Shown here one piece after another: positions 797 through 55,377 of a stretch of 64,000 nt of DNA. Position 1 is the stretch's first letter; every line of letters starts with the position of its first letter. The DNA is from Parcubacteria group bacterium GW2011_GWD2_38_12 (lineage in GTDB: Bacteria > Patescibacteriota > Minisyncoccia > GWC2-36-17), in NCBI GenBank assembly GCA_000992345.1, contig LBUA01000001.1, positions 13,542 through 77,541 of the forward strand, given 5' to 3'. Both the position numbers and the translations under genes were made by a program. The notes below the pieces were generated by a model that saw nothing but the letters and a program-made list of their open reading frames with translations, ran no database searches and was not told the origin of the DNA.

Positions 797-910
797 AGGT
801 TTTTCGGGACTTCCGGGCTCTTTTTTGAGGCATTAAACCTATATTTCGTTTTTGCTCATCGCCCGTGCTTATTGCAGGCAGGATAAACGAAATAAGCGAG
901 TGATATTTTA

Positions 911-1798: not shown

Positions 1799-1825
1799 AC
1801 GATTTTTAAATCTTAGACGCGTTAT

Positions 1826-3031
1826 ATGCTCAAAAATTTTATAATTTTAATTTTAAAAGGTGTCAGACACAGGCCCATCAGAAGTTGGTTGACTATTTTA
1901 GGGATTATTATCGGAGTGATGCTTGTAATAATGATTCTTTCTTTGAGCGCCGGAGTTCAGAATGCGATTAGCAGTACATTGCAAATGTTCGGTTCAGACT
2001 TGATTATTATTTTTCCCGGCAAGGAAACAAACCCTATTGCCGGAATTTTGGCCGGCCAAAAATTCAAAGAACAGGATATTATGGATCTTGAAAATATTGA
2101 AGGGGTTGATTCTGTGGCTCCGATGACTATCGGGACATTGAATGTTGATTTTAAGGGGGAGAAGAAATCTGTCGCTTTTCATGCTTCTTATTGGGATAAA
2201 ATGAAAAGCATTTTTGAAGAATCGCGTGGCGTGAAATTGGAAATCGGCGCATGGCCGCAGAATGAAGATGCTAACGAAGTGGTCCTTGGGTATTTAGCCG
2301 CAAACAGTCTTTTTAAAAATAAAATTCAGGCAGGAGATGAAATCATTGTTCAATCAAAAAGGTTGAAAGTATCTGGTATTATGGCGCGGCTCGGCATTCA
2401 GGAGGATGATAATTCCATGTATATGTCTTGGAATATGTTTCATAATATTTCCGGATTAAAGCCGGGAGTTATGTCGGCCTTAGTCAGGGTTGTCCCTGGG
2501 GGAAATATCGAGTTTATTGCCCAGCAGATAAGATTTCAGCTTCAGAAACAGGAGGTTGTCCGTGATTTTTCCGTTTTAAGTCCGGAAAAAGCCGGCCGCA
2601 TAGTTGGCGATATATTATCCATAGTGGAATTGGTGTTGCTTCTAATCGCCATGGTTTCTTTGCTTGTTGGCGCGGTTGGGATTATGAATACAATCTATAC
2701 TTCGGTTTTAGAACGTACAAAGCAGATAGGAATCATGAAAGCCATCGGAGCTTCATCAGAAAGTATTCTGATGCTGTTTTTAATAGAGTCGGGAGTTATT
2801 GGTATTATTGGAGGAGTTTTAGGGGTGGTTGTCGGTATTATTTTCGCTTGGATTGCCGGTTTTATAGCTTCGCGTTTTGGGATTAACGGACTTTTTTCTT
2901 TCGCTTCGCTTGATTTTTTTGGATTTTTCGCCATTTTAATTATTACTTTTATAACCGGCATTGTCTCCGGTATTTTGCCGGCGCGCCAAGCGGCAAAGAT
3001 GGAGCCAGCCGAAGCATTAAGATATGAATAA
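1826..3031 (+). CDS. ABC transporter permease, FtsX/MacB-type, with a large periplasmic loop
   Basis: N-terminal TM helix, roughly 200-aa extracytoplasmic domain and a C-terminal FtsX-like 3-TM bundle. Starts 28 nt after the upstream ABC ATPase stop codon. Confidence 0.8.
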   Translation: MLKNFIILILKGVRHRPIRSWLTILGIIIGVMLVIMILSLSAGVQNAISSTLQMFGSDLIIIFPGKETNPIAGILAGQKFKEQDIMDLENIEGVDSVAPMTIGTLNVDFKGEKKSVAFHASYWDKMKSIFEESRGVKLEIGAWPQNEDANEVVLGYLAANSLFKNKIQAGDEIIVQSKRLKVSGIMARLGIQEDDNSMYMSWNMFHNISGLKPGVMSALVRVVPGGNIEFIAQQIRFQLQKQEVVRDFSVLSPEKAGRIVGDILSIVELVLLLIAMVSLLVGAVGIMNTIYTSVLERTKQIGIMKAIGASSESILMLFLIESGVIGIIGGVLGVVVGIIFAWIAGFIASRFGINGLFSFASLDFFGFFAILIITFITGIVSGILPARQAAKMEPAEALRYE

Positions 3032-6091: not shown

Positions 6092-6634
6092 ATGGTTACA
6101 TTGACGAGTATAGCGGTTTTATCCGGGTTGCTCCTTGGTATTACTGCTCCCGGAAATATAATTTTAGACAGTAAAAATGATGATGTAAGGGGATTTGCGG
6201 TTGAATTTGCGATAGATGGCTGGTCGGAAAATAGTATGAAGGCCAGTAATTCAAGCGCTATTAAGATTTCTCAGAAGACTATAAAAAATAGGAATTACAT
6301 TGCCATTGAAAGTGGCGATGTAACTGTTACGGCTTATTCTTCGACTTTTGACCAGACGGATGATTCCCCGTTTATTATGGCTTCGGGAAAATATGTTTAT
6401 GACGGAGCAATCGCGGCAAATTTCTTGTCTATTGGCACTAAAGTCCGTTTTCCGGAAAAATACGGCGATAAGATATTCACTGTAGAAGACAGAATGAATA
6501 AAAGATATGATTATAGGATGGATATTTGGATGGAAACCAGACAAGAAGCTCAAAGTTTCGGTTTAAGAAAATTGAAATATGAAATAGTGAAAGATGATTC
6601 TGATGCATTTCATAATATTGTAGCTGTTAAATAA
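6092..6634 (+). CDS. 3D-domain cell-wall-associated protein (MltA/YuiC-like 3D domain)
   Basis: N-terminal hydrophobic signal/anchor. The C-terminal YSSTFDQTDDSPFIMASGKYVYDGAIAANFLSIGTKVRF...RMDIWM segment matches the 3D domain with its conserved Asp residues. Confidence 0.7.
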   Translation: MVTLTSIAVLSGLLLGITAPGNIILDSKNDDVRGFAVEFAIDGWSENSMKASNSSAIKISQKTIKNRNYIAIESGDVTVTAYSSTFDQTDDSPFIMASGKYVYDGAIAANFLSIGTKVRFPEKYGDKIFTVEDRMNKRYDYRMDIWMETRQEAQSFGLRKLKYEIVKDDSDAFHNIVAVK

Positions 6635-6675
6635 AAACTAAAACCGTCCGCCTAAGGCGGACGGTTTTAGTTTTA
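6634..6675. terminator. Bidirectional rho-independent terminator between convergent genes
   Basis: Perfect hairpin aaaaccgtccgcc-TAAG-ggcggacggtttt flanked by A/T runs on both sides. Confidence 0.8.
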
Positions 6676-6691
6676 AGTGCTCTTAGTCTGT

Positions 6692-7051: not shown

Positions 7052-7198
7052 TTCTATTTTATTGGTTAATTATAAATATGACGACCTTTAATATATCAAA
7101 TAATGATGAATATAATAAATTATTCATTAATATTAATACATCGGTTATGGGTTATGCAATAGTTAAAAATGTGGCCGTTAGTTAAGGACTTTATTATT

Positions 7199-7276
7199 CC
7201 CCGCAATATAAGAAGGATATGTTGTGTTATCCTTCTTATATTGCGGGGTTTGACAATTTTGAGAAAAGAGTATAAT
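7199..7276. promoter_or_regulatory. Perfect 20-bp-arm inverted repeat directly abutting a near-consensus sigma70-like promoter (TTGACA-15-TATAAT)
   Basis: ccccgcaatataagaaggat / atccttcttatattgcgggg with a 10-nt loop. Followed by tttgacaattttgagaaaagagtataat. Confidence 0.5.
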
Positions 7277-7715: not shown

Positions 7716-7730
7716 TTTTTCACAAAATAC

Positions 7731-7762
7731 AAAACCCCTCATTTTGAGGGGTTTTGTATTTT
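7731..7762 (+). terminator. Rho-independent terminator
   Basis: aaaacccctc-atttt-gaggggtttt hairpin followed by a T-run. Confidence 0.75.
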
Positions 7763-7779
7763 GTGTTAATGTAAAATTA

Positions 7780-8436
7780 ATGATCAAATTTGATATAATA
7801 ACAATCTTCCCCGAAATTTTCAGCTCGTATTTTGGTAAATCCATTTTAAAGCGCGCGCAGGAGAATGAGTTGATAAAAATCGGCGTTCACGATTTGCGTA
7901 AATTTTCCATTGACAAACACAAAAAAGTGGATGACAAAGCATATGGCGGAGGACCGGGGATGGTGCTCAAAATTGAACCAATTGTTAGAGCAATTGGTTC
8001 AATTTTGAAGTTAAAAGTTAAAAGTAAAAAGTTAAAAGTAAAAAGCAGAGTTATATTATTTTCTACTCGGGGGAAAAAATTCAACAATAAAATTGCCGAA
8101 AAATTGGTAAAATATGATCAATTGATTTTAATTTGCGGTAGATATGAAGGGGTGGACGAGAGGGTAGCCAAATATATTGCCGATGAGGAAATATCCATTG
8201 GAGAGTATGTTTTGACTGGCGGTGAAATTCCGGCGATGGTTTTGGTGGATGCGGTTAGTCGCCATATTCCCGGAGTTTTAGGCAAGCAAGAATCATTAGA
8301 GGAAATAAAGGGATCGTATCCGGTTTATACGCGTCCAGAAGTTTTTGAGATGAGAAATAAAAATTTGCGCGTGCCGAAAGTTTTATTATCCGGCGATCAT
8401 AAAAAAATAGAAGAATGGAGGGAGAAATTTCACTAA
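7780..8436 (+). CDS. trmD: tRNA (guanine37-N1)-methyltransferase TrmD, carrying a Lys-rich insertion from an AAAGTTA heptamer repeat
   Basis: [13 protein letters not shown]-terminus, [16 protein letters not shown] and [11 protein letters not shown] motifs. The annotated ORF start at 7744 overlaps the upstream terminator, so the start is placed at Met 7780. Confidence 0.9.
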
Positions 8437-10588: not shown

Positions 10589-11644
10589 TTGAAACGCTTC
10601 ATGCTTCATATTTTGTGTTTCATGACTGTGATGGATTTACAGCAAAAATTAGAGAATATAAAGAAACTATTTAATCAAAAAATAAGAGATGTAAAAAATC
10701 TTGAAGTTTTGGAAAATTTGCGAGTTCAGTTTTTGGGTAGGAAAAGCGAGTTGGTGGAATTTTTAAAGGGGATTAAAAATTTAACCGAAGAAGAAAAAAG
10801 GAAATTTGGCCCCGTTGCCAATCAATTGAGGCGGGAGATGGAAAAATTAATGGAAGACGCAAAGAAATCGCTTAAAATGCGCGAGGTTGGTAAATTGATG
10901 GAAAAAGATCGTATTGATATTTCTGCTCCAGCCAAAAAAATATCTCAAGGACATTTACACCCATTAACTTTGATACAAAGGAAGATTGAGGATATTTTTC
11001 AGTCTATTGGTTTTGAAGTTGTTGAAGGACCAGAGATAGAGACGGAATACTATAATTTCAATGCCCTAAATATTCCGGCTGATCATCCAGCCAGAGAAAT
11101 GCAAGATACTTTCTGGCTCCAAACTCCAAACTCCAAACTCCAAACTCCAAAGTTACTAATGCGAACACAGACTTCATCTGTTCAGATTAGATACGCGGAA
11201 AATCATCAACCGCCGATTAGAATTATTTCCCCGGGCAGAGTTTTTAGGTTTGAAGCAACTGACCAAACTCACGATATTCAATTTCATCAAATTGAGGGAT
11301 TGATGATTGATAAAAATATTTCCCTTGCCAATCTAAAGGGAGTTTTGGAAATTTTATTTAAAAAGCTTTATGGCAAAGGAGTGGAGGTTCGTTTTAGGCC
11401 CAGTTACTTTCCCTTTGTGGAGCCGGGAGTGGAGGTAGATATGAAATTCAGAGGAAAGTGGATGGAAATTGCGGGCGCCGGAATGGTGCATCCGAAAGTT
11501 TTAAATACCATGAAAATAGATAGTCGCATTTGGCAGGGATTTGCTTTCGGTATGGGGCTTGAGAGATTGGCAATAATTAAATATGGGATTGATGATGTGA
11601 GACTGTTTTCATCGGGAGATTTGAGATTTCTGAAACAGTTTTAA
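10589..11644 (+). CDS. pheS: Phenylalanine--tRNA ligase alpha subunit, with an in-frame ACTCCAA heptamer-repeat insertion
   Basis: Class II aaRS motifs (FRPSYFPFVEPG, GAGMVHP, GMGLERL). The insert reads LQTPNSKLQTPK. Confidence 0.9.
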   Translation: MKRFMLHILCFMTVMDLQQKLENIKKLFNQKIRDVKNLEVLENLRVQFLGRKSELVEFLKGIKNLTEEEKRKFGPVANQLRREMEKLMEDAKKSLKMREVGKLMEKDRIDISAPAKKISQGHLHPLTLIQRKIEDIFQSIGFEVVEGPEIETEYYNFNALNIPADHPAREMQDTFWLQTPNSKLQTPKLLMRTQTSSVQIRYAENHQPPIRIISPGRVFRFEATDQTHDIQFHQIEGLMIDKNISLANLKGVLEILFKKLYGKGVEVRFRPSYFPFVEPGVEVDMKFRGKWMEIAGAGMVHPKVLNTMKIDSRIWQGFAFGMGLERLAIIKYGIDDVRLFSSGDLRFLKQF

Positions 11645-11668: not shown

Positions 11669-12079
11669 ATGGAAGAATTTAAAAAAACTTTAGGACATGG
11701 AAAAGAAGAAGAACATTCTCCCGAAGATTTAAGAAGAGAGATAGTGGAGATGATAGCAAAAATAAAAAAAGAAAACCCGAACGATCCCCATCTTATTAAT
11801 ATAAATACAGAAAATATTAAAGAAGAAGATAGGGAGATACAAAAAAGATATGAGCAACTCTTAAATAAAGGACTGACGTTGACCGAAGAGGAGTATAATG
11901 AATTTTTTAATGAATTTGTCATATATAGAAATAAGGTTTTTAAAGAAATTGAAGAGAAAAAGACACATTCAAGTCGCTTAGACTTTGTTGGTTATTTGGG
12001 AAATAAAATAGCAGGGAAAATTTATGTTCCCTGTAGGAAAAATTGGCCAAATAAAGGGGAGAGACCATTAAAACCATGA
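11669..12079 (+). CDS. Hypothetical highly charged (Glu/Lys-rich) protein between pheS and pheT. Its stop overlaps the pheT start (ATGA).
   Basis: ORF only. No recognisable motifs. Confidence 0.35.
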   Translation: MEEFKKTLGHGKEEEHSPEDLRREIVEMIAKIKKENPNDPHLININTENIKEEDREIQKRYEQLLNKGLTLTEEEYNEFFNEFVIYRNKVFKEIEEKKTHSSRLDFVGYLGNKIAGKIYVPCRKNWPNKGERPLKP

Positions 12080-14637
12080 AAATCTCATATAATTGGTTAA
12101 AAGATTTCGTGAACCTAAAAAGATATTCGGCTCCAGAGCTAGCGGATTTATTGACCATGAACTTTGCGGAAGTCGATGGGATTAAAACGCTTGGCGATGA
12201 TTTGATTTTTGATTTGAAAATTTTACCAGATAGAGCTTCGGATTGCCTGTCGCATTATGGAGTGGCGCGTGAGTTAGCTGCGCTAACAAAGTTAAAAGTT
12301 AAAAGTTTAAAGTTTAAAGTTAAAGAAAGTAAAAAAATAAATATAAAAGATTTGATAGAAGTTGAAAATCAAAATCCGGAGATTTGTAAAAGATATATTT
12401 CGCGAGTAATTTTGGATGTTAAGGTCGGGGCTTCTCCGAAATGGTTGAAAGAGAGACTTGAATCATTGGGTCAAAAATCTATAAATAATGTAGTGGACGC
12501 GACAAATTATGTGATGTTGGAACTGGGGCAACCGATGCATATTTTTGATTTTGATAAAATCAAAAATATGCAAGTTAAAAGTGAAAAGTCCATGCCTACC
12601 GGCAGGCAGGTAAAAGCGCAAAGTGAAATTTCAAAAATTATAATCCGAAAAGCAAAAGTCGGAGAAAAGATAACAACCCTAGATAATCAAGAAATAGAAC
12701 TAAATGAAGATGTTCTTGTAATTGTCGGCTCTGATACTCCAAACTCCAAACTCCAAACTCCAAGCTCTATTCTGGCAATTGCTGGCATAAAAGGCGGAAA
12801 GAAAGCGGAAATAGATCAAAATACCAAAAATATTATTTTGGAATCAGCGAATTTCAGCGCAGAGGCAATACGCAAAGCTTCAAAACTGACTGGAATAAGA
12901 ACAGAGTCTTCTGCCAGGTTTTCCGCTGATTTAGATCCTAATCTAGCGGGTATTGCTATTGAAAGATTGGCATCTTTATTGGTTCAAATTGCTGGAGGGG
13001 AAGCAGTTAGCGGGAAAATAGACATTTATCCACGCAAGGTTATGAGTGCGAAAGTTGCTGTTTCTTTGAATGACGTTATAAGTTTATTGGGAGAGAAAAT
13101 ATCCGAAAAAGAATTTTTGAGTATTTTTAAACAGCTAAACTTTAAGGTAGAAAAGATTTATCAAGAGAAAGAATTAATGAAATTGGCAAGGAAATTTATT
13201 GGCAGGCCATACAAATATGGGGCAAGCACAAGTCAAGATGCTCCCGAAACATTTGATTGCTCCAGTTTTGTTCAATATTTATATTGGCAAATTGGCATTG
13301 AGATTCCCAGAATTTCAGTTGAGCAGTTTTTATTTGCGCGTTCCATTGAAAAGAAAGATTTGAAAATTGGCGATCTGGCTTTTAGAAAAGGAGGAAGGCC
13401 ATATTTCTATAAAGAAACTCCAAGGGGTATTGGACATGTGGGGGTTTATATCGGGAAAGGCAGGGTTGTCCATGCATCCGGAGACAAAAAGAAAGTAATC
13501 GAAGAAAAATTAGAAACATTTTGCAAGAAAGACTTTCGCGGATTTGGAAGAATAGCTGATTTAGGGGATGAGGCTTTTGTCATCGAAATCCCCACATATA
13601 GGAGAGATATCAGAATGAAAGCTGATATTATTGAAGAGATTGGCCGGATTTACGGTTATCAAAATATAAAATCAAAATTGCCTGAAGGTATTCTGATGCT
13701 GCCTCAAAGAAATGATGAGATTTTTTGGGAAAATTTATCAAAAAACGCTTTAGTATCCACTGGATTTACTGAAGTTTATAACTACTCTTTTATCGGTGGA
13801 AAAGATTTAAAGGCGGGTTTTATTATTCCTGAAAATATTTTAGAACTTCAAAATTATATTAGCGATGACAAAAGATATTTGCGACCAAGCTTGATTTTTG
13901 GTTTTCTAAGAAATATCGAAGAAAATTTCAGGTATTTTAATGAGACGCGCATATTTGAAGTTGGCAAAATTTTCACCCTTAATGCAAAAGAAAAAATTTC
14001 TGAGAGAAAGTTTATTGGCGGGGCCATTTCCCTTAAAGGGAAAAGAAATAGCGCAAAAGCTGAGGAATTTTATGAATTAAAAGCCACCGTTGATTTATTG
14101 ATGCAGAAATTGGGTGTGCCGGAATTTTGGTATGATGATTATCAGGCCACGCCCGAGATCATTGAAGGAAAAATTTGGCACCATTTGCGTTTAGCGGAAA
14201 TTAAAATAGGTGACGAGAGAGTCGGATTTATTGGAGAAATAAATCCGAATGTCATTGGAAATTATGATATAGACGGAAGAGTGGCGATGTTTGAAATTGA
14301 TTTTGAAAAATTAGCGTGTCTCGCTAACGAAGATTTTATTTATAGTCCTATATCAAAATTCCCAGCCATAGAAAGAGATTTGGCGATACTTACTCCCATT
14401 AATGTGAAAGTTGATGATGTTTTAAATGTCCTGGAAAATATAGGCGGCCAGTTGCTCATAAATACGGATTTATTTGATGTTTATGAAGGCGATAATATTC
14501 AGGAGGGTAAAAAGAGTTTGGCCTTCCATTTGATATTCCAGTCGCGGGAAAGAACTTTATCCGATAAGGAAGTGGATGAAATTTTAGCCGAAATAATCGT
14601 TGCTTTATCCGAGGAGGGTTGGGAAATTAGAAGATAG
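12076..14637 (+). CDS. pheT: Phenylalanine--tRNA ligase beta subunit that lacks the N-terminal OB (B2) domain and carries an inserted NlpC/P60 domain plus two heptamer-repeat insertions
   Basis: MKISYNWLKDFV N-terminus, B3/4, a B5 motif pair (FKVEKI ... IPTYRRDIRMKADIIEEIGRIYGYQNI) and an FDX-ACB C-terminus. The NlpC/P60 block (RPYKYG, FDCSSFVQY, GHVGVYIG, VHAS) is embedded inside B5. Confidence 0.9.
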   Translation: MKISYNWLKDFVNLKRYSAPELADLLTMNFAEVDGIKTLGDDLIFDLKILPDRASDCLSHYGVARELAALTKLKVKSLKFKVKESKKINIKDLIEVENQNPEICKRYISRVILDVKVGASPKWLKERLESLGQKSINNVVDATNYVMLELGQPMHIFDFDKIKNMQVKSEKSMPTGRQVKAQSEISKIIIRKAKVGEKITTLDNQEIELNEDVLVIVGSDTPNSKLQTPSSILAIAGIKGGKKAEIDQNTKNIILESANFSAEAIRKASKLTGIRTESSARFSADLDPNLAGIAIERLASLLVQIAGGEAVSGKIDIYPRKVMSAKVAVSLNDVISLLGEKISEKEFLSIFKQLNFKVEKIYQEKELMKLARKFIGRPYKYGASTSQDAPETFDCSSFVQYLYWQIGIEIPRISVEQFLFARSIEKKDLKIGDLAFRKGGRPYFYKETPRGIGHVGVYIGKGRVVHASGDKKKVIEEKLETFCKKDFRGFGRIADLGDEAFVIEIPTYRRDIRMKADIIEEIGRIYGYQNIKSKLPEGILMLPQRNDEIFWENLSKNALVSTGFTEVYNYSFIGGKDLKAGFIIPENILELQNYISDDKRYLRPSLIFGFLRNIEENFRYFNETRIFEVGKIFTLNAKEKISERKFIGGAISLKGKRNSAKAEEFYELKATVDLLMQKLGVPEFWYDDYQATPEIIEGKIWHHLRLAEIKIGDERVGFIGEINPNVIGNYDIDGRVAMFEIDFEKLACLANEDFIYSPISKFPAIERDLAILTPINVKVDDVLNVLENIGGQLLINTDLFDVYEGDNIQEGKKSLAFHLIFQSRERTLSDKEVDEILAEIIVALSEEGWEIRR

Positions 14638-18291: not shown

Positions 18292-18584
18292 TGGCGAATA
18301 AAATATAAATGTGACAAAAATAAGAAAACAAACTTTTACTTATGGACTCGTTTTGGGAATTATAATAAATAATTGTTTTTGACTTCTATTTGATGAATAT
18401 GTAAGATGGGTTTGTGCTAGAGAAAATAGCGACTTCTGCGCCAATTATAAATAATCAGTGAGTTTTTAATACTTATTGTTTAGTGTCGTCTAGCAGTCCC
18501 TATTTTTAAGAATAAATTTAATTTATAGAATTAGTGCGGGGTGTTCAGAATTTTAATCAAATTTTGTATGCTTCGTTTTGAAAT

Positions 18585-19862
18585 TTGGAGCATTCCGGCA
18601 AATTTTTAATAAAAGGTGGAAGAAAGCTGAGCGGCGAGATTGATATAATGGGCAGCAAAAATGCGGCAACACCGATATTGGCTGCGACATTGTTGACGAG
18701 TGAAGAATGTATTATCGATAACATCCCTTTGATTGAAGATGTATTTAGATTGATTGAAATTTTAAAACACCTTGGCGCAGAAGCTGATTTTATTGGTAAG
18801 AGAAAATTGAAAATAAGAGCAAGAAACATAGACGTAGGTAGATTAAATAATGCAGGCGTTGGCAAATTAAGATCCTCGGTTTTATTGATGGGGCCGCTTC
18901 TCGCTAGATTCAGGAAAATTCAAACCAAAAATCCGGGAGGATGTCTTATCGGTAATCGTCCGCTTGATACTCATCTTGAGGCATTTGTTGATTTAGGAGC
19001 CAAGATTGCGCCAAATGGCAACAATCTTGATATAATTTTAAAAAATAAACCCAAAGATGAAATAGTGCTTAAAGAATTTTCCGTAACTGCGACGGAAAAT
19101 GTCTTAATGTTTGCTTCATTGATGCCACAAAGAACAATTATAAAAATAGCCGCAATGGAGCCACATGTACGAGATTTAATAAAATTTTTACGCGCCATGG
19201 GCGTAAAAATAAAATTATTAGACAGTCATACCATTGAAGTAGTGGGAGTAAAAAAACTTCGCGGCGCAAAGCATAAAATTATTCCGGATCAAATAGAGGC
19301 GGGAACGTTTTTAATAATTGGAGCTTTGATAGGCAGTGATATTTTAGTAAAAAATTGCAGAATAGATCATTTGGATTTAATTTTAAAAAAGTTGAAAGAA
19401 TTTAATATTGATTATAAGTTTGAAAAGCGAAGGGGAAATTTTGCCGATATTAGAATTAAGACAAATTATCCATTAAGAGCGGCAAAGGTTCAGGCGATGC
19501 CATATCCGGGAATTCCTACGGATTTGCAATCAATCTTTGGTGTCTTAGCCACTCAAGCGCAGGGGACAAGCATGATTCATGACCCATTATTTGAAGGAAG
19601 ATTCAAATATCTGGATGAGCTTGTGAAAATGGGTGCTAATGTTGTTGTCTGCGATCCGCACAGAGCATTAATTACCGGTCGGACTCAGCTTCAAGGAACT
19701 AATATAACAAGTTATGATTTACGCGCGGGAGCGTCTTTGATTATTGCAGGCTTGATTGCTAGCGGAGAAACTGTTATAAATGACGCATATCAAGTGGATA
19801 GAGGATATGAAAGGATAGAAGAAAGGTTGCAGAAGTTGGGAGCGGACATAACCAGAATTTAG
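18585..19862 (+). CDS. murA: UDP-N-acetylglucosamine 1-carboxyvinyltransferase (TTG start likely)
   Basis: KFLIKGGRKLSGEIDIMGSKNAATPIL, GNRPLDTHL, and a C-terminal DRGYERIEERL segment that aligns with the E. coli MurA C-terminus. Confidence 0.9.
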   Translation: MEHSGKFLIKGGRKLSGEIDIMGSKNAATPILAATLLTSEECIIDNIPLIEDVFRLIEILKHLGAEADFIGKRKLKIRARNIDVGRLNNAGVGKLRSSVLLMGPLLARFRKIQTKNPGGCLIGNRPLDTHLEAFVDLGAKIAPNGNNLDIILKNKPKDEIVLKEFSVTATENVLMFASLMPQRTIIKIAAMEPHVRDLIKFLRAMGVKIKLLDSHTIEVVGVKKLRGAKHKIIPDQIEAGTFLIIGALIGSDILVKNCRIDHLDLILKKLKEFNIDYKFEKRRGNFADIRIKTNYPLRAAKVQAMPYPGIPTDLQSIFGVLATQAQGTSMIHDPLFEGRFKYLDELVKMGANVVVCDPHRALITGRTQLQGTNITSYDLRAGASLIIAGLIASGETVINDAYQVDRGYERIEERLQKLGADITRI

Positions 19863-19936: not shown

Positions 19937-20944
19937 TTGTTTCTCAAAAAAATCGGAATAGATTTAGGCACGACAAATACTTTAGTTTTTATTCCCCACA
20001 AAGGGGTTGTTATCAATGAGCCGTCGGTGGTGGCGGTTTCTGTTATTGATAATTCTATTTTGGCTGTTGGCGTGGAAGCAAAAGAAATGGTTGGCCGCAC
20101 GCCTGAAACCATTGTAGCGCGCAGGCCGCTTAAAGACGGGGTAATAGCCGATTATAAAACTACCGAGGCAATGCTCAGATATTTTATAAATAAAGCTTTG
20201 GGGAGATTTCGATTTTTTAGGCCGGAAGTTATGGTTTCTGTTCCTGCGGGTATTACCTCTACGGAGAGAAGGGCAGTTATTGATGCGGCTATCCGTTCTG
20301 GCGCAAAAACTGCTTATCTCATTAAGGAGCCGGTGCTTGCCGCTATCGGAGCAGGTATTCCCATTAACGAAGCTATGGGCAATATGATTGTGAATATCGG
20401 GGGTGGCACAAGCGAAATAGCCGTTATATCGCTTGGCGGTATTGTTTCTTGCCATTCGATACGTGTGGCCGGGAATAAGCTCGACCAGTCTTTAGTTGAC
20501 TATATAAAGCGCAAGCATAATTTGGCTATTGGCGAAAGAACAGCAGAAGAAATAAAAATAACTATTGGTAGCGCTTTAGCTCAGAAAAAAGAAGAAGAGA
20601 TGGAAGTCAGGGGCCGAGATCTCATAACTGGTCTGCCCAAAACCATTAAAATAACTACAAATGAAACAGTAGAGGCTATGGCAGATCAATTAGAAGAAAT
20701 AATAAGAGCTATTAGGGGGGTTGTATCGCAAACTCCTCCGGAACTTTGCGCGGACATTATGGATAAGGGAATTGTTTTATCTGGTGGCACCGCTCTGCTT
20801 CGCAATCTTGATGAATTAATAATGAAATCTACAGGTGTTCCATCTTATGTCGCGCAAGATCCTTTGCTTTGTGTCGCAAAAGGTGCTGGCGTTACATTGG
20901 AGAATTTGGAAATTTATAAGAGATCAATAATGGCGAAAAAGTAA
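19937..20944 (+). CDS. mreB: Rod shape-determining actin homologue MreB (copy 1, intact)
   Basis: IGIDLGTTNTLVF phosphate-1 motif, GGGTSEIAVISLGG and LSGGTALLRNLD. Confidence 0.9.
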   Translation: MFLKKIGIDLGTTNTLVFIPHKGVVINEPSVVAVSVIDNSILAVGVEAKEMVGRTPETIVARRPLKDGVIADYKTTEAMLRYFINKALGRFRFFRPEVMVSVPAGITSTERRAVIDAAIRSGAKTAYLIKEPVLAAIGAGIPINEAMGNMIVNIGGGTSEIAVISLGGIVSCHSIRVAGNKLDQSLVDYIKRKHNLAIGERTAEEIKITIGSALAQKKEEEMEVRGRDLITGLPKTIKITTNETVEAMADQLEEIIRAIRGVVSQTPPELCADIMDKGIVLSGGTALLRNLDELIMKSTGVPSYVAQDPLLCVAKGAGVTLENLEIYKRSIMAKK

Positions 20945-20954
20945 GATTTTTGTC

Positions 20955-21075
20955 CAAATTTTAGAGCTGAAAGCGAATAAAATTTGGTTACAAAATCTTA
21001 CCCTGTTAAATTCCCGCGAAGCGGGGGCGCCGAAGGCGCATTTAACAGGGTGTGCTGGGCTTTGCGATTGTTTAA
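20955..21075 (+). repeat. Family-1 structured repeat element, copy 1 (shorter variant), directly upstream of the GT4 gene
   Basis: Shares about 50 nt of 5' extension with copy 2 (ttttagagc.gaaagc.aataaaattt) and the nested hairpin core cttaccctgttaaat-[ccccgcGAAGcggggg]-[cgccGAAggcg]-catttaacaggg. Confidence 0.7.
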
Positions 21076-21092
21076 ATTTATTTTTATAAAAT

Positions 21093-22199
21093 ATGATTAT
21101 TGGAATTCACAGTGTAGCTGCTTTTAAACCGCACAAAACCGGCGTTGAAAAATACGCTAAGAGATTAGTTGAGAATATGGCGATGCTTCCGGAAGCGAAG
21201 GAGCATCGTTTTATTTTGTATACAAATAAACAGAATCAATCTACTGTTACGGAAAGAATAAAGAATCAAGATTTGCCAGAAAATTTTTATTTGAAAATTT
21301 TGAAGTTTCCGTTTTTGTGGACGCAAATAAGACTAGCGGCGCATTTTATTTTTAAAAAACCCGATGCTTTTTTTGTTCCAGCTCATATTTTGCCGATAAT
21401 ATCGCATCCCAAAAACTCCACAGTGATGATTCACGACATTGCTTTTGAATTATTCCCCGAGGCGTATCCATTGTTTCATAGAAAATATTTGCGATTTACC
21501 ACAAAATACGCGCTAAAACACGCTGAAAAAATAATCGTGCCATCGGAAAGCACAAAGCAAGATATTTTGCGTTTTTATAAATGGGTGGACGAGAAAAAGA
21601 TTTTTGTTGTTTATCACGGAATGGAGTATAAACTGCTTGATTTAAAATTCTCCGAAGCACCACTCAATTTCCCCTATTTTCTTTATATCGGGAGATTAGA
21701 GTTTAAGAAAAATATTCTCGGAATTTTGCGGGCGTTTGATTTGTTTAAAGCGCAGTATAAATCTACGCACAAATTAGTGCTTGCCGGCGGTTTGGGTTTT
21801 GGCGGCGAGAAAATAAAAGAAATGGCGGCAAAACACAGATTTAAAAATGATATAATTTTAACAGGGTTTATTTCCGAAGAAAAAAAAGAAAATTTGTTTG
21901 TCTCTGCCGATATATTTTTGTTCCCATCTCTTTATGAGGGTTTTGGTTTTCCGATCTTGGAAGCGCAAGCTTTTGGCGTTCCAGTAATAACTTCATGTAT
22001 CTCTTCTATGCCTGAAGTATCCGGGGAGGGGGCTATTTTGGTTAATCCTCATAAGCCAGAAGAAATTAAAGATGCTATAATCAGGATTTTAATTGATGAA
22101 AGCTTGCGGAAAAATCTGATTGTAAAAGGCAGGGAAAATTTAAAAATATTTTCCTGGCAAAATTGCGCCCGAGAAACTTTAAGAATTATAACCGATTAA
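21093..22199 (+). CDS. Glycosyltransferase family 4 (GT-B, retaining)
   Basis: EX7E-type C-terminal motif region FPSLYEGFGFPILEAQAFGVPVITS. Confidence 0.8.
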   Translation: MIIGIHSVAAFKPHKTGVEKYAKRLVENMAMLPEAKEHRFILYTNKQNQSTVTERIKNQDLPENFYLKILKFPFLWTQIRLAAHFIFKKPDAFFVPAHILPIISHPKNSTVMIHDIAFELFPEAYPLFHRKYLRFTTKYALKHAEKIIVPSESTKQDILRFYKWVDEKKIFVVYHGMEYKLLDLKFSEAPLNFPYFLYIGRLEFKKNILGILRAFDLFKAQYKSTHKLVLAGGLGFGGEKIKEMAAKHRFKNDIILTGFISEEKKENLFVSADIFLFPSLYEGFGFPILEAQAFGVPVITSCISSMPEVSGEGAILVNPHKPEEIKDAIIRILIDESLRKNLIVKGRENLKIFSWQNCARETLRIITD

Positions 22200-27674: not shown

Positions 27675-28726
<1,052 letters not shown>

Positions 28727-47306: not shown

Positions 47307-48023
47307 ATGACGATTGACTATTTGGTCAAATGTCAAAGGTTAAAAGTCAAGAAGTTTGCAAAACATATGGAACAACCATTTCAGAGGGCTCAAGCAACGG
47401 TCGCGGTGGAATCAGCTTCTCCTGTGATTAAGTTTAGAAAAGGGGACGCAATAGCTTCGGTGGCGTTGGGGCTTATCATCGGATTTTTTACGCCGTTTAT
47501 TTTAAATAATATCGGACGGACTTTGCCTCTTCAGGATTTTTATTTTGTAATCTTCCCTATTGTGGCGCTGATGGGAATGTGGATTGTTTTTTTGATTGCC
47601 GCGAGAGTTCCGGTTTTGGTGCAGATTACGAAATTTGGCGCAATTGGCGCAGCTAATACCGTAATTGATTTTGGGATATTGAATTTTCTGTCTTTCAAAT
47701 TCCAGATTTTTAGCGGAGGAAGTCTGACTATATTGAATATTATTTCTTTTAGTGTCGCCGTCATAAATAGTTATTTTTGGAACAAGCACTGGACTTTTAA
47801 ATCCGAGCAAAATAATTCCAGCAAACAATTTATAGAGTTTATTGTTGTGTCCGTTATAGGAGTATTAATAAATACTGGAATAGTTTATTTAATGACGACT
47901 TTGGTTATTCCTTTTGCTGGTATTTCCGAGCAGATTTGGTTAAATATCGGCAAATTGATGGCAACATTTATTTCTCTTGCATGGAACTTCGCTGGTTATA
48001 AATTTATAGTGTTTAGAAAATAA
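47307..48023 (+). CDS. GtrA-family polyprenol-phosphate-sugar flippase-like membrane protein with an N-terminal extension
   Basis: C-terminal about 130 aa with 4 TM helices and GtrA hallmarks (KFGAIGAANTVIDFGILNFL ... FWNKHWTF ... WNFAGYKFIVFRK). Confidence 0.65.
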   Translation: MTIDYLVKCQRLKVKKFAKHMEQPFQRAQATVAVESASPVIKFRKGDAIASVALGLIIGFFTPFILNNIGRTLPLQDFYFVIFPIVALMGMWIVFLIAARVPVLVQITKFGAIGAANTVIDFGILNFLSFKFQIFSGGSLTILNIISFSVAVINSYFWNKHWTFKSEQNNSSKQFIEFIVVSVIGVLINTGIVYLMTTLVIPFAGISEQIWLNIGKLMATFISLAWNFAGYKFIVFRK

Positions 48024-48034
48024 GGGCTTTATTA

Positions 48035-48198
48035 AAATTTTAGAGCAGAAAGCAAATAAAATTTAGATAGTAAATCTTAACCTTGTTAAATCCCCGCGGA
48101 GCTGGGGCGCCAAAGGCGCATTTAACAGGGTACTCGATTTTGAAATAAAATTTTGCGCACTCCGCAAAGCTTCGTTTCAAAATTTCGATAAAATCGGC
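48035..48198 (+). repeat. Family-1 structured repeat element, copy 2 (full length); its last three bases are the ATG of the downstream gene
   Basis: About 85% identical to 53725-53871. Nested hairpins: ccttgttaaat/atttaacaggg enclosing ccccgc-gga-gctgggg and gcgcc-aaa-ggcgc, then ttttgaaat...[tttgcg-cactc-cgcaaa]...cgtttcaaaa, then ..aaaatcggcATG. Confidence 0.75.
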
Positions 48199-48684
48199 AT
48201 GTATGAGATTTATAAATTTTTACATGGAATTGGAATTTTAATGACTGTTGGCGTGATTACCGCGTCGCTTATTTACGGTTGGTATAAAAAATTATTCCCA
48301 AATAATAAATTATTAACCAAAATCCAATTTCCATATAAGTGGATATCTCCGTCGGTGAAAATTGGCCTTGTTGTTTTAATTATTTCCGGCCTTGGGATGT
48401 ATGCGGAGAGAGCGGAACAATTCAATAGTTCGGCGGTTTTTTGGATAAAAATGGGTTTTGTTTTGGCGCTTGTAATAAATAATATTTGGTTAAACAGCAT
48501 TTTAAAACCAAAAGGCAAAAAGATATTTTCCGATCCAGTTCTTGCCAATTCGCCGGAAGCCTTAAAACTTAAAAAGACATTTAATTTTGCAGAAAATCTG
48601 TCTTTATTTTTATGGTTCACAACCATGATTGTAAGTTTTCTTTTGCCTGAGGGCCGTGAAGAGCGCGGAGGAAGAGAATTTTAA
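48199..48684 (+). CDS. Hypothetical membrane protein (4 TM)
   Basis: ORF with TM helices. The start codon is supplied by the upstream repeat element. Confidence 0.4.
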   Translation: MYEIYKFLHGIGILMTVGVITASLIYGWYKKLFPNNKLLTKIQFPYKWISPSVKIGLVVLIISGLGMYAERAEQFNSSAVFWIKMGFVLALVINNIWLNSILKPKGKKIFSDPVLANSPEALKLKKTFNFAENLSLFLWFTTMIVSFLLPEGREERGGREF

Positions 48685-52445: not shown

Positions 52446-53636
52446 ATGTATAGAAATAACACTCGCCACGGCGAGGGTTCGTTTGGTAGATTTTCCGGCA
52501 ATAGAAAGCGACCAGCGCGTCGCGCGCGTCGCGGTCAAAATATTGATGTTTCAAAATTCATCAATAAAGCGGTCATAACCGAAACAACAGAACATTTTGT
52601 TCCCGAACATTTGTTCGCTGATTTTAATATTGATGCTCGCTTAAAAGCGAATGTCTTAGCTAAAGGATATAATACTCCAACTCCGATTCAGGATAAATCA
52701 ATCCCGCATATTTTGCGCGGATCCGATATTGTGGGTATTGCCAATACCGGAACCGGGAAAACCGGAGCATTTCTTGTTCCTCTTATTCAGAAAGTATTGA
52801 TAAATCATAAAGAAAAAGTTTTGATTATCGTGCCGACTCGCGAATTGGCTTTGCAAATTGATAAAGAATTCAAGAGTTTTGCCAGGGGATTGAATATGTT
52901 TTCCGTGTGTTGTGTCGGCGGCGCGCCTATCGGCAAACAGATTTCTGAATTGAGATATTATAATCATTTCATAATCGGTACCCCGGGCAGATTGAAAGAT
53001 TTGGCTCAAAGGGGCTTTATATCTTTTCCTCAGTTTTCTGCGATTGTCTTAGATGAAGCGGACAGAATGCTTGATATGGGATTTATTGATGATATGAAAT
53101 TTATAATGTCTAAGATGCCCGAGAAACGCCATACGTTATTTTTCTCGGCGACAATGTCTCGAGAAATTGAAGCGCTTATTAAAAATTTTCTACGCGACCC
53201 GATATCTATCTCGGTAAAAACCGGAGATACTCCAAAAAATGTTGATCAAGATATTGTGAGGGTATCGGCGGATAATAAAATAGATATATTGCATAATCTT
53301 CTGAAGAATGAAGAATTCAGCAAGGTGTTGATATTCGGCAGAACAAAACATGGCGTGGAAAAATTATCCGAGATACTGATTGCACGCGGATTTAAAGCGG
53401 AGTCAATCCATGGAGACAAAAATCATGCTAAGAGACAACGGGCCTTGGGACTTTTTATTGATAATCGCATTCAGATTCTTGTTGCTACTGATGTGGCGGC
53501 GCGCGGATTGGATATCCCCAATGTGAGCCATGTCATTAACTACGATATTCCTGCCGCGTACGAAGATTATGTTCACCGCATTGGTCGAACTGGTCGCGGC
53601 AATAAAAAAGGCAAAGCGCTCACATTTATTGGATAA
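52446..53636 (+). CDS. DEAD-box ATP-dependent RNA helicase with an Arg-rich N-terminal tail
   Basis: Q-motif, Walker A ANTGTGKT, DEAD (VLDEADRMLD), SAT and HRIGRTGRG. Confidence 0.9.
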   Translation: MYRNNTRHGEGSFGRFSGNRKRPARRARRGQNIDVSKFINKAVITETTEHFVPEHLFADFNIDARLKANVLAKGYNTPTPIQDKSIPHILRGSDIVGIANTGTGKTGAFLVPLIQKVLINHKEKVLIIVPTRELALQIDKEFKSFARGLNMFSVCCVGGAPIGKQISELRYYNHFIIGTPGRLKDLAQRGFISFPQFSAIVLDEADRMLDMGFIDDMKFIMSKMPEKRHTLFFSATMSREIEALIKNFLRDPISISVKTGDTPKNVDQDIVRVSADNKIDILHNLLKNEEFSKVLIFGRTKHGVEKLSEILIARGFKAESIHGDKNHAKRQRALGLFIDNRIQILVATDVAARGLDIPNVSHVINYDIPAAYEDYVHRIGRTGRGNKKGKALTFIG

Positions 53637-53724
53637 GGGCTTCGTCTAAAATTTGAATCCGCCCAGTCTCGATTTTTCTTGAAAAATCGAGGATGCTCAA
53701 TTACAAAGTAATCGGCACTGGCGG

Positions 53725-53868
53725 AGCACAAATTTTAGAAACAAAACCTTACCCTGTTAAATCCCCGCGAAGCGGGGGTGCGAAAGCGCATTTAACAGGG
53801 TGCTCATTTTTGAAACGAAATTTTGCGCACTCCGCAAAGCTCCGTTTCAAAATTTTGACAAAATCGGC
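53725..53868 (+). repeat. Family-1 structured repeat element, copy 3 (full length); it ends at the ATG (53869) that most likely starts the ABC-F gene
   Basis: cttaccctgttaaat-[ccccgcGAAGcggggg]-[tgcgAAAGcgca]-tttaacaggg ... ttttgaaacg-aaat-[tttgcg-cactc-cgcaaa]-gctc-cgtttcaaaa-ttttgacaaaatcggcATG. Confidence 0.75.
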
Positions 53869-55377
53869 ATGTCGCAAAATGCAAAGCCCCGTAGCGAACG
53901 AAGTTCTGCTGCAGGAGAAGTTATAATCAGATTTGATGAAGTGTCTTTTGAACACGGACCCCAAAAACCCATTCTTGAAGAGGTGGGTTTTTCGGTGCGT
54001 AGAGGAATGAAAGTCACGCTGATGGGGCAAAATGGCGCCGGAAAAAGCACTATTTTTCAACTCATTACCGGAGCGGCAAAACCCGAATCAGGCGCGGTGC
54101 ATATCGGGTCGGATATTATTGTCGCTATTTCGCGGCAAGTAATTCCTCGCGATCAGTTGGATTTAACAGTGCGGGAATTTTTTGAGAAATGTTTTGATAA
54201 AAAAGTTTACGATATAGATCCTAAAATTGATGAGGTGTTGGAAGTGGTGAATTTAAAAGGCCACGAAAAAATGCACAAAAGGATTATTAAGTCATTTTCC
54301 GGCGGTCAGCAGGCGCGGCTTCTTTTGGCGTCGGCGCTCATTCAAGATCCCGATGTATTGCTTCTTGATGAGCCGACCAACAATTTGGATAAAGCCGGTA
54401 TCGCGCATCTGACAAATTTTTTAGTTAATTATAAGAAGACTTGTATTGTTATTTCTCACGACGCGGATTTTCTCAACGCTTTCACGCAGGGCGTTTTGTA
54501 TCTTGATATATTTACTCGCAAAATAGAACAATATGTCGGTAATTATTTTGATGTGGTGAAACAAATCTCTGTTCGAATAGAAAAAGAAAATAGAAAGAAT
54601 GCGTTATTAGCAAAAGAGATTCAGGAGAATAAAGACAAGGCAAACTTTTTTGCGCACAAAGGCGGACGTATGAGGTTGCTCGCTAAACGTATGCGTGAGA
54701 AAGCCGAGGAGATGGAAGAAGAAAAAGTTGATGTGCGAAAAGAAGATAAACCCATCAGGCCGTTTATTATTCCTTTCCAAGAGGATTTGATAGGGGAGAT
54801 TATAAATATCTCATCTTTCACGACGATGAAAAATCATCAGCCAGCAGAACACAAAGCCAAAATTTCAATGAAGAAAAATCAGCACTTGCTCTTATCCGGC
54901 CCCAATGGCATCGGCAAAAGCACATTACTAAAATCCATCGCCAAAGGTACTGTAGGGGGCGTGGCGATTGCCCGAGGTGTCCGCGTCGGGTATTATTGCC
55001 AAGACTTTTCTACGCTTAATTTTGATGAAACTGTTTATGAATCGCTCGTGTCGGCGATGGAGAAAGCGACCGGAAAAAAAGACGATGAATTCATCCGTGC
55101 TATCGCTGCGAGTTTTATGATTAGAGGTGATATGGTTTATTCTAAAATCGGCAGTTTGTCCGAAGGGCAAAAGGGGCTCGTTGCTTTTGCGCGACTGGTA
55201 ATTCAAAAACCCGGCCTTTTGATACTTGATGAGCCAACCAATCACATCAATTTTCGCCATTTACCAGTCATCGCTGGAGCGCTCAACAAATACGACGGCG
55301 CGATGATTCTCGTCAGCCATGTCCCCGAATTCGTCTCCCAAATCCGCATTGATGAGATATTGGATTTAGAGAAATAG
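53869..55377 (+). CDS. ABC-F family ATPase (tandem ABC domains, no TMD; ribosome-associated EttA/Uup-like). Start placed at the ATG supplied by the repeat; the annotated ORF extends upstream to 53800 through the repeat.
   Basis: Two Walker A motifs (GQNGAGKST; GPNGIGKST), two signatures (FSGGQQARLLLASAL; LSEGQKGLVAFARL) and an inter-domain linker with a charged arm. Confidence 0.85.
   Translation: MSQNAKPRSERSSAAGEVIIRFDEVSFEHGPQKPILEEVGFSVRRGMKVTLMGQNGAGKSTIFQLITGAAKPESGAVHIGSDIIVAISRQVIPRDQLDLTVREFFEKCFDKKVYDIDPKIDEVLEVVNLKGHEKMHKRIIKSFSGGQQARLLLASALIQDPDVLLLDEPTNNLDKAGIAHLTNFLVNYKKTCIVISHDADFLNAFTQGVLYLDIFTRKIEQYVGNYFDVVKQISVRIEKENRKNALLAKEIQENKDKANFFAHKGGRMRLLAKRMREKAEEMEEEKVDVRKEDKPIRPFIIPFQEDLIGEIINISSFTTMKNHQPAEHKAKISMKKNQHLLLSGPNGIGKSTLLKSIAKGTVGGVAIARGVRVGYYCQDFSTLNFDETVYESLVSAMEKATGKKDDEFIRAIAASFMIRGDMVYSKIGSLSEGQKGLVAFARLVIQKPGLLILDEPTNHINFRHLPVIAGALNKYDGAMILVSHVPEFVSQIRIDEILDLEK

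Follow-up and report, generated by a model that had tools for sequence, protein, structure and literature searches.

A T-shaped palindromic repeat filling the spacer between mreB and a GT4 glycosyltransferase gene in a Parcubacteria genome: one copy of a family that may act at the DNA level

In Parcubacteria group bacterium GW2011_GWD2_38_12, a structured repeat, hereafter copy 1 of Family-1, takes up all of the spacer that separates mreB from a GT4 glycosyltransferase gene. An earlier note had read it as a truncated copy sharing an extra 5' arm with a second copy, in keeping with modular evolution or decay of a mobile element. This raises the questions of what a complete unit looks like, how copy 1 relates to it, and whether such an element acts as DNA or as RNA.

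The window, by which we mean the whole 64-kb stretch of DNA that was analysed (64,000 nucleotides of contig LBUA01000001.1), contains exactly three cores of this repeat, as detected with a covariance model (CM) with filters off and in agreement with a repeat search. All three are intergenic and on the plus strand, each followed by a plus-strand gene with its start 41–67 nt downstream. Together with the left (D1) and right (D3) arms, the following features can be delineated:

18537..18602, plus strand: D3-like remnant GGGGTGTTCAGAATTTTAATCAAATTTTGTATG, possibly a fourth copy in decay (weak; nhmmer match to the D3 profile, E=0.0011)
20942..20944, plus strand: TAA stop codon of mreB, which the unit abuts with its first position; the left terminus that is conserved, TAAG(G/A)..TTTGTC, starts at this point
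20942-21095, plus strand: copy 1 as a whole, from the mreB stop codon to the GT4 ATG
20943..20999, plus strand: left arm D1 of copy 1, the "5' arm" of the earlier note (from the fold and from a profile built on other genomes, E=2.4e-9)
21000..21051, strand-neutral: T-shaped core of copy 1 (CM 50.5 bits, E=1.6e-11)
21052..21092, plus strand: tail of copy 1, 41 nt, AT-rich, with no D3 counterpart, followed by the GT4 ATG (21093-21095)
48021..48079, plus strand: left arm D1 of copy 2, starting at the TAA stop codon of a GtrA-like gene
48080..48131, strand-neutral: core of copy 2 (CM 46.0 bits, E=2.8e-10; DNA fold -15.5 kcal/mol)
48132..48201, plus strand: right arm D3 of copy 2, ending in AAAATCGGCATG, the start of a 161-aa membrane ORF
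53634..53750, plus strand: left arm D1 of copy 3, starting at the TAA of a DEAD-box helicase gene (profile match 53635-53762, E=1.4e-9)
53751..53801, strand-neutral: core of copy 3 (CM 40.3 bits, E=1e-8; DNA fold -20.3 kcal/mol)
53802..53871, plus strand: right arm D3 of copy 3, ending in AAAATCGGCATG, the start of an ABC-F ATPase gene

The ORF preceding copy 1 (19937-20944, stop codon at 20942-20944) is MreB_Mbl. The D3-like remnant is located upstream of an EPSP synthase gene and has no intact core. Three weaker CM matches (6631-6677, 7194-7253, and 7717-7769) are plain hairpins and were rejected as family members.

Full Family-1 units are about 180–240 nt long and fill the spacer from stop codon to start codon. 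Because D3 is the mirror image of D1, the full unit is a dyad of ~200 nt, made up of D1, the T-shaped core, and D3. The consensus of D1 reads TAA-GGGCTTTGTC, starting at the upstream stop codon (left termini in other genomes take the form TAA-(A)G(G/A)G(C/T)TTTGTC), and its closing stem, AAGGGCTTTGT with ACAAAACCTT, surrounds an AAATTT..AAATTT stem and a variable hairpin. D3 ends with AAAATCGGCATG in the window and with AAATTTGG(C/T)ATG elsewhere, this end being the start codon of the downstream gene. A D1 profile matches the reverse strand of D3, and vice versa; ~80 nt of D1 can be aligned to the reverse complement of D3, including the termini (TAAG.. versus CATG..). In copy 2, D3 forms a stem CGATTTTGAAA../..TTTCAAAATTTCG around the hairpin TTTGCG-CACTC-CGCAAA.

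In copy 1, the closing stem of D1 is formed by AAGATTTTTGT (20943-20953) and ACAAAATCTT (20990-20999), and the AT-rich hairpin CCAAATTTTA..TAAAATTTGG (20954-20987) sits inside it. This stem reads AAGA/TCTT compared with AAGG/CCTT elsewhere, a compensatory change, and the arm is alignable both to D1 of copy 2 and to the reverse complement of D3 of copies 2 and 3. The core consists of a 12-bp stem (P1, ACCCTGTTAAAT/ATTTAACAGGGT) closing two abutting mini-hairpins in a perfect three-way junction. The two strands of P1 in copy 1 (21000-21011 and 21040-21051) enclose hp1 (TCCCGC-GAA-GCGGGG, 21012-21026) and hp2 (GCGCC-GAA-GGCGC, 21027-21039), and the copy folds as DNA with -21.8 kcal/mol on the plus and -21.7 kcal/mol on the minus strand (z about -7). 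It is the only flawless core among the three in the window; that of copy 2 has two defects, with P1 containing a T.G and hp1 a C.T mismatch.

The similarity of ~50 nt reported upstream of the cores of copies 1 and 2 was confirmed over a shared 55 nt: the quoted 29-mers, at 20959-20987 and 48038-48066, differ at three positions, and the repeat search (family D6) extends the match to 89 nt at 74% identity. However, this arm is not an extra one common to copies 1 and 2 only. Copy 3 also has a D1, split by a 73-nt insertion (53656-53728) which folds alone as a stem with two hairpins, and the arm is present in homologous units of other Patescibacteria. Copy 1 does lack the second hairpin domain, as had been claimed, with 21052-21092 being unalignable with the 66–67-nt 3' domains of copies 2 and 3; a 3'-domain profile matches copy 2 (E=8e-10) and copy 3 (E=2e-11) but not the tail of copy 1, in which no promoter was called. 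The terminal ATG, thought to be missing, is there (21093, the GT4 start), although its conserved AAAATCGGCATG context is absent. As for the hp2 loops, GAA in copy 1 and AAA in copy 2 had been read correctly, but the 'AAAG' of copy 3 was a misread 4-bp stem with a GAAA loop (GTGC-GAAA-GCGC).

Since the "5' arm" is D1, the left half of the dyad, and D3 is absent, copy 1 is a one-armed family member with a perfect core, and not a separate short variant carrying an extra arm. Its right arm may have been lost, exchanged through recombination at the core, or absent from the start. The view of a modular element occurring in at least two length forms is borne out, and so far as a mobile element or its decay had been suggested, mobility fits the data and decay is not supported, the core of copy 1 being the only flawless one.

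Beyond this genome, the core occurs in at least 240 public loci which, by record labels that across phyla rest on MAG binning, belong to Patescibacteria, Desulfobacterota, Omnitrophota, Deferribacteres, and Zixibacteria. They come from two collection scans, both pattern-anchored. The first covered one genome per species with a stem-anchored pattern (GTTAAAT-N18-36-GCATTTAACAGGG) and returned at least 119 loci, with record titles naming Patescibacteria classes, Desulfobacterota, Omnitrophota, Deferribacteraceae, Zixibacteria, and others; its matches include megabase contigs and several copies per genome. Core-bearing megabase contigs are found for Desulfatiglandales, Zixibacteria, and Doudnabacteria. 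The second scan covered metagenomes, was anchored on the commonest hairpins only with the stem left free, and returned at least 121 matches. P1 flanks 121 of the 121 hairpin-retrieved loci in this second scan (among the matches listed). Positions 1–6 of the stem are 98–99% invariant and position 7 is a G-C pair in 90% (94 distinct flanks, among the matches listed), the junction-proximal 7 bp reading GTTAAAT/ATTTAAC. Invariance at this level in a search that left the stem free indicates that the inner stem is conserved as a sequence and not just as pairing. The outer 5 bp of P1 vary and are partly compensated, with T-A, C-G, or A-T at position 8, C-G or T-A at position 11, and A-T or G-C at position 12.

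Inside P1 there are two junction-anchored hairpins, whose arms come in 38 versions for hp1 and 24 for hp2 among the matches listed. The fraction of paired interior nucleotides is 0.68, compared with 0.27 in shuffles (112 distinct interiors, among the matches listed). When 84 sequences are aligned with the CM, 98.1% of the cells are paired (85.9% in shuffles) and 227 cells show changes on both sides (52 in shuffles), counts which lean towards structure because the alignment was fitted to the model; covariation is seen in 14 of 14 hairpin pairs of this alignment, and slid controls drop to 35–46%. The structural parse and the CM alignment replaced RNAalifold on a MAFFT alignment, which had shown P1 only because MAFFT misaligns the hairpins. 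Tandem or abutting copies are present in five loci (L173, with three copies in 300 nt, L004, L012, L069, and L087), and another locus (L052) reaches a density of four copies in 8 kb.

The core family is so far undescribed. Searches of the window copies and 18 related loci against Rfam, at gathering score and at E up to 10, returned tRNAs and noise only; two consensus cores had no match among PLSDB plasmids; and a scan of IMG/VR with the core pattern gave seven matches, of which the one inspected (L120) was a chance match without hairpins, and five of the other six have the same match length. In the literature, the stem sequences, as DNA or RNA, match unrelated primers only, and we found no bacterial description under palindromic or structured elements of Patescibacteria/CPR or under double-hairpin or T-shaped elements, nor any annotated record describing the family.

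Several independent features point to action at the DNA level. With DNA parameters, the plus and minus strands of copy 1 are equally good at folding (-21.8 and -21.7 kcal/mol). The loops are mostly triloops and occur in complementary flavours, AAA/TTT and GAA/TTC (among the matches listed), and several mini-hairpins read GCGAAGC or GCGAAAGC, which we take to be classic, very stable DNA mini-hairpins. At positions allowing all four combinations, G.T and A.C mismatches are about equal in number (11 vs 10), and compensated pairs dominate. The orientation of the core to genes, based on crude ORF calls within the fetched loci, is mixed: 36 sense, 28 antisense, 11 convergent, and 6 divergent among the matches listed. 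A 'frame' orientation taken from the T.G at stem position 13 was tried as a proxy for genes or terminators, and was still about 50:50. Furthermore, ~15 of 29 Family-1 units have their interior turned round with respect to the asymmetric flanks (~14 vs 15, among the matches listed), and the orthologous loci L133 and L205 differ by the inversion of one triloop, AAA versus TTT. The genes downstream are unrelated, and include GT4, a membrane ORF, ABC-F, a tRNA, and others. An RNA leader role of the core family is disfavoured.

Comparison with relatives reveals presence and absence at orthologous positions. In four relatives with the same synteny and a GT4 64–75% identical, the MreB-GT4 spacer holds 60–126 nt of unrelated sequence; the element is likewise missing from the orthologous GtrA spacer in one locus (L255) and from upstream of ABC-F in four relatives (77–81% identical). 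A CM search with filters off found 0 cores in 8 contigs of close relatives totalling 98 kb, as opposed to 3 in the 64 kb of the window. Two metagenome contigs (L177 and L181) are identical over 288 of 288 nt covering the core and its right side, and have unrelated left sides; this chimera may stem from recombination at the core, or else from the repeat having been used as a join in the assembly. No strain-level polymorphism was seen in three other contigs, which are 100% identical to the region of copy 1 over 7.1 kb. Contigs identical to this region occur in Rifle groundwater metagenomes.

No gene recurs next to the core: in an all-against-all clustering of 760 ORFs (crude ORF calls) from at least 119 loci, the largest family covered 8 loci, and the top families were unrelated housekeeping genes. 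No transposase or recombinase was found beside the copies in at least about 240 loci, nor among the 38 window ORFs scanned (of 57 candidates of at least 110 aa).

On balance, and with moderate confidence, we consider the region to be one copy of a non-autonomous, REP/MITE-like palindromic repeat whose action is at the level of DNA. The T shape would be adopted by either strand or by a cruciform, and copies would spread in this form, with the invariant junction-adjacent stem recognised by an enzyme encoded elsewhere; candidates are a single-strand transposase of the HUH/RAYT type or a tyrosine recombinase of the Xer/IntI type. Hairpin-templated repair, or recombination between the arms, may keep the complementarity of the arms perfect and at the same time produce the flip-flop of the interior, so that both of these properties could be explained together. 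The one-armed copy 1 could have resulted from recombination or deletion with its breakpoint at the core. We infer the mobilising enzyme purely by this reasoning, since no transposase or recombinase was found beside the copies listed or among the window ORFs scanned, and the same holds for any host function. A purely selfish insertion does not predict the stop-to-start fit of Family-1: in all ~20 units, including the three of the window, D1 lies at a stop codon and D3 ends in AAATTTGG(C/T)ATG (among the matches listed), and this fit hints at a role of the arms in gene expression.

The proposed REP/MITE-like palindrome shares with REP/BIME elements, which RAYT (TnpA-REP) HUH transposases mobilise, that they are short, palindromic, intergenic repeats, present in multiple copies, in both orientations, and sometimes clustered, in which the hairpin structure is kept over the loop sequence, and which lack autonomy and presumably move as single strands in folded form. 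A RAYT gene typically has REPs on its flanks. REPs, however, are single imperfect hairpins of 20–40 nt with a 5' GTAG or CGTC tag and are species-specific, unlike the core with its three-way junction and a 12-bp stem of conserved sequence common to several phyla. The flanks of the core read TT(T/C)-ACCCT, with no GTAG/CGTC tag, and no RAYT (Y1 HUH transposase) was present among the clustered ORFs of at least 119 loci or the scanned ORFs of the window.

MITEs (Correia/NEMIS, RUP, ERIC) offer a likeness in their long inverted arms, non-coding and intergenic nature, and presence/absence polymorphism between relatives, and the ~80-nt match of D1 to the reverse complement of D3 is equivalent to their terminal inverted repeats. 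Target-site duplications, which the earlier note had proposed to look for, are not visible at the edges of the core or the unit in any of the three copies, and the flanks in the family are inverted (TTT..GAA), not direct. In contrast to MITEs, the most conserved part is the centre and not the tips, and neither a transposase nor a related autonomous insertion sequence was found in the fetched loci.

Two further systems resemble the core in shape. The inverted terminal repeats of AAV also have a stem which closes two small palindromes with AAA/TTT triloops, occur about equally often as flip and flop, and carry a protein-recognition sequence in the stem; they are, however, ends of about 125 nt of a linear single-stranded viral genome, whereas the core is ~50 nt and internal to bacterial chromosomes, and the resemblance is one of form only. 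The DHEs of Allomyces are double-hairpin elements of fungal mitochondria. Such DHE and RHE elements of fungi and sponges have two adjacent hairpins, conserve structure, occur in both orientations, and are thought to be mobile with no known enzyme, but they are organellar and lineage-specific and have no conserved closing stem. The mitochondrial repetitive hairpin-forming elements (RHE) have been described as small dispersed hairpin elements (PMC2800124).

Other readings of the same observations have to be weighed. One of them, possible if doubtful, is that the T-shaped core, as a folded single strand or a cruciform, serves as the substrate of an unrecognised structure-specific DNA transaction common to Patescibacteria, Desulfobacterota, Omnitrophota, and further anaerobic phyla, in which a host Xer/IntI-like tyrosine recombinase or a HUH enzyme would bind and cut the GTTAAAT/ATTTAAC duplex. 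If true, this would amount to a new attC-like/IMEX-like mobile site, able to move itself and sometimes the genes between copies.

The main rival, though unlikely, is that the unit is a cis-acting RNA, transcribed between cistrons as a leader or as an intercistronic processing or stabilising element. In this case D1 would stabilise the upstream mRNA at its 3' end, the core would be a three-way junction that binds protein, and D3 would be a 5' UTR setting translation initiation of the downstream gene. Such a role would agree with the gene-sense orientation of the window copies and of all ~20 Family-1 units, which lie flush with TAA and end in AAATTTGG(C/T)ATG or AAAATCGGCATG. It would agree also with the very stable RNA folds of the three window copies (z -3.8 to -6.7), with the strong covariation, and with the placement of the core in other genomes, where it often precedes a start codon by 9–16 nt that include a Shine-Dalgarno sequence. 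Most genes of the source genome have no Shine-Dalgarno sequence, which makes unusual initiation signals plausible. However, the fixed orientation of a leader is found for the outer arms of Family-1 only: across the family the core is oriented to genes either way, and the order of hp1 and hp2 is flipped in about half of the Family-1 units with the flanks unchanged. Further to that, G.U shows no excess over A.C, triloops dominate and not GNRA/UNCG tetraloops, the downstream genes are unrelated and orthologous spacers of relatives have no element, and there is no match to any Rfam family, all of which speaks against an RNA.

A known type of site-specific recombination site was considered as well, namely an attC-like or dif-like site whose folded strand presents GTTAAAT/ATTTAAC to an Xer/IntI-type tyrosine recombinase, with recombination between copies shuffling the intervening genes as cassettes; this we hold to be rather unlikely. 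Its appeal lies in the boxes, as the integron core-site consensus GTTRRRY is matched by GTTAAAT, and RYYYAAC by ATTTAAC, and in dif the outer portion of the XerD arm, TTATGTTAAAT, is GTTAAAT too; the 7-mer also co-occurs with XerD in papers on dif. As in attC, which is recognised by structure, keeps little sequence beyond its 7-nt boxes GTTRRRY/RYYYAAC, has a variable and sometimes branched terminal structure, and works as folded single-stranded DNA, the stem sequence is invariant and the rest varies while keeping its structure. Copies of attC can bracket small cassettes such as toxin-antitoxin pairs, and in one array-like locus from Desulfatiglandales (L058) three co-oriented copies of the core bracket such pairs (HigB/HigA and an HI1420-type antidote). 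The breakpoint in L177/L181 falls exactly at the core, and abutting copies create ATTTAACAGG-N5-6-CCTGTTAAAT, a dif-like geometry. The nearest precedent is the DUF1874 motif, a multistem attC-like candidate (PMC5737381).

Nevertheless, the core fails the tested defining features of attC and dif. The order of the boxes is opposite to that of attC, the 5' arm carrying GTT and the 3' arm AAC (either strand reads GTTAAAT ... ATTTAAC, versus RYYYAAC ... GTTRRRY). In most copies the 12 bp of P1 are perfectly paired, with neither extrahelical bases nor an unpaired central spacer, and the stem holds one recombinase-sized binding site and not two. There is no second box and no intI nearby, no locus contains an integrase gene (among the matches listed), and most copies are solitary and flank housekeeping genes. 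A dif site consists of two 11-bp arms around a central region of 6–8 bp and is unique to each replicon, in contrast to the multi-copy core, which has only the XerD-arm-like 7-mer, with its arms back to back around the hairpins. A search of the fetched loci for a canonical dif site yielded none that was convincing.

An outright improbable alternative is a DNA or transcription signal serving the host, in which TTAACA in P1 would act as outward -35 boxes, paired, in the version of divergent promoters, with TAAAAT boxes 17–18 nt away in the arms, or in which the unit would be a bidirectional terminator or insulator. A near-consensus promoter-like match is indeed present on the plus strand of copy 2 (TTAACA-N18-TAAAAT at 48122-48151, 10/12), TTAACA-N17/18-TAAAAT or TAAATT is found on the minus strand of copies 2 and 3, and the TTAACA/TAAAAT arrangement recurs in many Family-1 units. 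Yet the -10 box is absent from the plus strand of copy 3 and from copy 1, a -10-like hexamer at spacing 18 is seen in 14 of 385 outward flanks (among the matches listed), and a larger peak lies at the non-functional spacing of 13. A general model of outward promoters was rejected as unsupported beyond Family-1. With regard to termination, T-runs follow AGGGTGAA in some flanks, but the G+C-rich hairpin with T-run of an intrinsic terminator is not found at copy 1, where 20800-21200 contains 0 terminator-like sites; ordinary hairpin terminators exist elsewhere in the window, and upstream genes are not preferentially co-oriented as a terminator would need. Neither role explains the conserved T shape.

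Finally, a chance likeness of copies 1 and 2 upstream of the core, with no common origin, which the earlier note had named as the way in which its claim could fail, is practically out of the question: the region is AT-rich and the self-complementary AAATTT motif is repeated, but a 5'-domain (D1) profile built from other genomes only matches copy 1 at E=2.4e-9 (copy 3 at E=1.4e-9 and copy 2 more weakly, E=0.097) and refutes this reading, and both the 89 nt at 74% identity and the recurrence of the D1 module, with its compensatory closing-stem change (AAGG/CCTT versus AAGA/TCTT), in >20 units argue against it.

What the earlier note had missed is that the core belongs to a cross-phylum family, and that its behaviour is that of a DNA palindrome showing flip-flop. 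Repeats and mobile DNA are generally considered to be almost absent from Patescibacteria genomes. If the element is a mobile palindrome as we propose, it would constitute a repeat family whose recognition stem is conserved in sequence across phyla, including the ultra-small Patescibacteria. It would then offer a handle for finding the mobilising enzyme and a means of tracking horizontal exchange of episymbionts with their neighbours, and would explain assembly breaks and chimeras in Patescibacteria genomes, with its flip-flop being a natural example of hairpin-mediated inversion in bacteria. Should the arms also provide stop, start, and promoter signals, each unit would be a ready-made spacer capable of rewiring the expression of the adjacent gene.

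The stem arms of the core (the T-shaped double hairpin at the center of the Family-1 unit) read outwards as TTAACA in copies 2 and 3. Combined with TAAAAT or TAAATT at 17-18 nt, this motif forms sigma-70-like promoter matches that are near-consensus and lie to either side of the core; this spacing is frequent among Family-1 units, though not family-wide. The matches in the window are as follows:

48122-48151, + strand, sigma-70-like promoter match
48089-48060, - strand, sigma-70-like promoter match
53760-53732, - strand, sigma-70-like promoter match

Two further features concern the arms of the unit:

53656-53728, insertion of 73 nt that interrupts the left arm of copy 3
18537-18602, remnant resembling the right arm D3, GGGGTGTTCAGAATTTTAATCAAATTTTGTATG, upstream of the EPSP synthase gene (nhmmer E=0.0011)

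The insertion has a fold of its own, in which a stem CCGCCCAGT/CACTGGCGG closes two hairpins, and is a second and unrelated T-shaped structure nested within the unit. At the D3-like remnant an intact core is absent, and the remnant may be a decayed fourth copy.

Two contigs from Hainich groundwater (L177 and L181) are identical over the core and 288 nt rightward, whereas to the left of ACAAAACCTTT they are unrelated; either the genome was rearranged at the element, or assembly of the metagenome made a join at the repeat. At the orthologous loci L133 and L205, with flanks ~90% identical, the loop of the first mini-hairpin reads AAA in the former and TTT in the latter, a difference that amounts to inversion of the hairpin loop at one and the same locus.

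Cores can also be clustered. Three co-oriented cores, 1.0 and 1.9 kb apart, lie at 544-3477 of a Desulfatiglandales locus (L058, CAXXJJ01 contig_1), with toxin-antitoxin genes between them (an HI1420-type antidote, and HigB with an HTH antitoxin). This layout is cassette-array-like, and no integrase was found within the 8-kb locus. At another locus (L173, 2058-2351), three cores are packed inside 300 nt directly upstream of a gene, forming a BIME-like cluster; a run of GATTAGT heptamer repeats is seen upstream of it. By eye, an apparent tRNA gene, and not a protein-coding start, is located downstream of the Family-1 unit at L071 and L194.

Most predicted gene starts in the window (e.g. 8565, 14864, 17004, 21093, 22403) lack a Shine-Dalgarno motif and have AT-rich upstream sequence, with GGAGG-like sites at only a few (12076, 34377, 39323). 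A second MreB-like gene is present ~7.8 kb downstream of mreB; at their N-terminal ends the two genes are 71% identical in DNA sequence across 83 nt (19952-20034 vs 27732-27814). In the phenylalanyl-tRNA synthetase beta subunit (12076-14634), the B3_4 and B5 domains are separated by an inserted NlpC/P60 peptidase domain. The contig of a close relative (L253) has both the two MreB paralogues and the NlpC/P60 domain in the same position. Short heptamer-type tandem repeats (CTCCAAA; AAGTTAAAAGT-like) occur at several sites in and around pheS, pheT and one other gene, including two recurring pairs:

11103-11161 and 12723-12781, heptamer-type tandem repeats
7998-8045 and 12286-12333, heptamer-type tandem repeats

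Finally, the covariance model of the core gave weak matches to three long simple hairpins:

6631-6677, between convergent genes
7194-7253
7717-7769, directly after a 102-aa ORF

Given the positions of the first and third, these hairpins look like ordinary terminators; conventional hairpins, separate from the T-shaped element, are therefore present in the genome.
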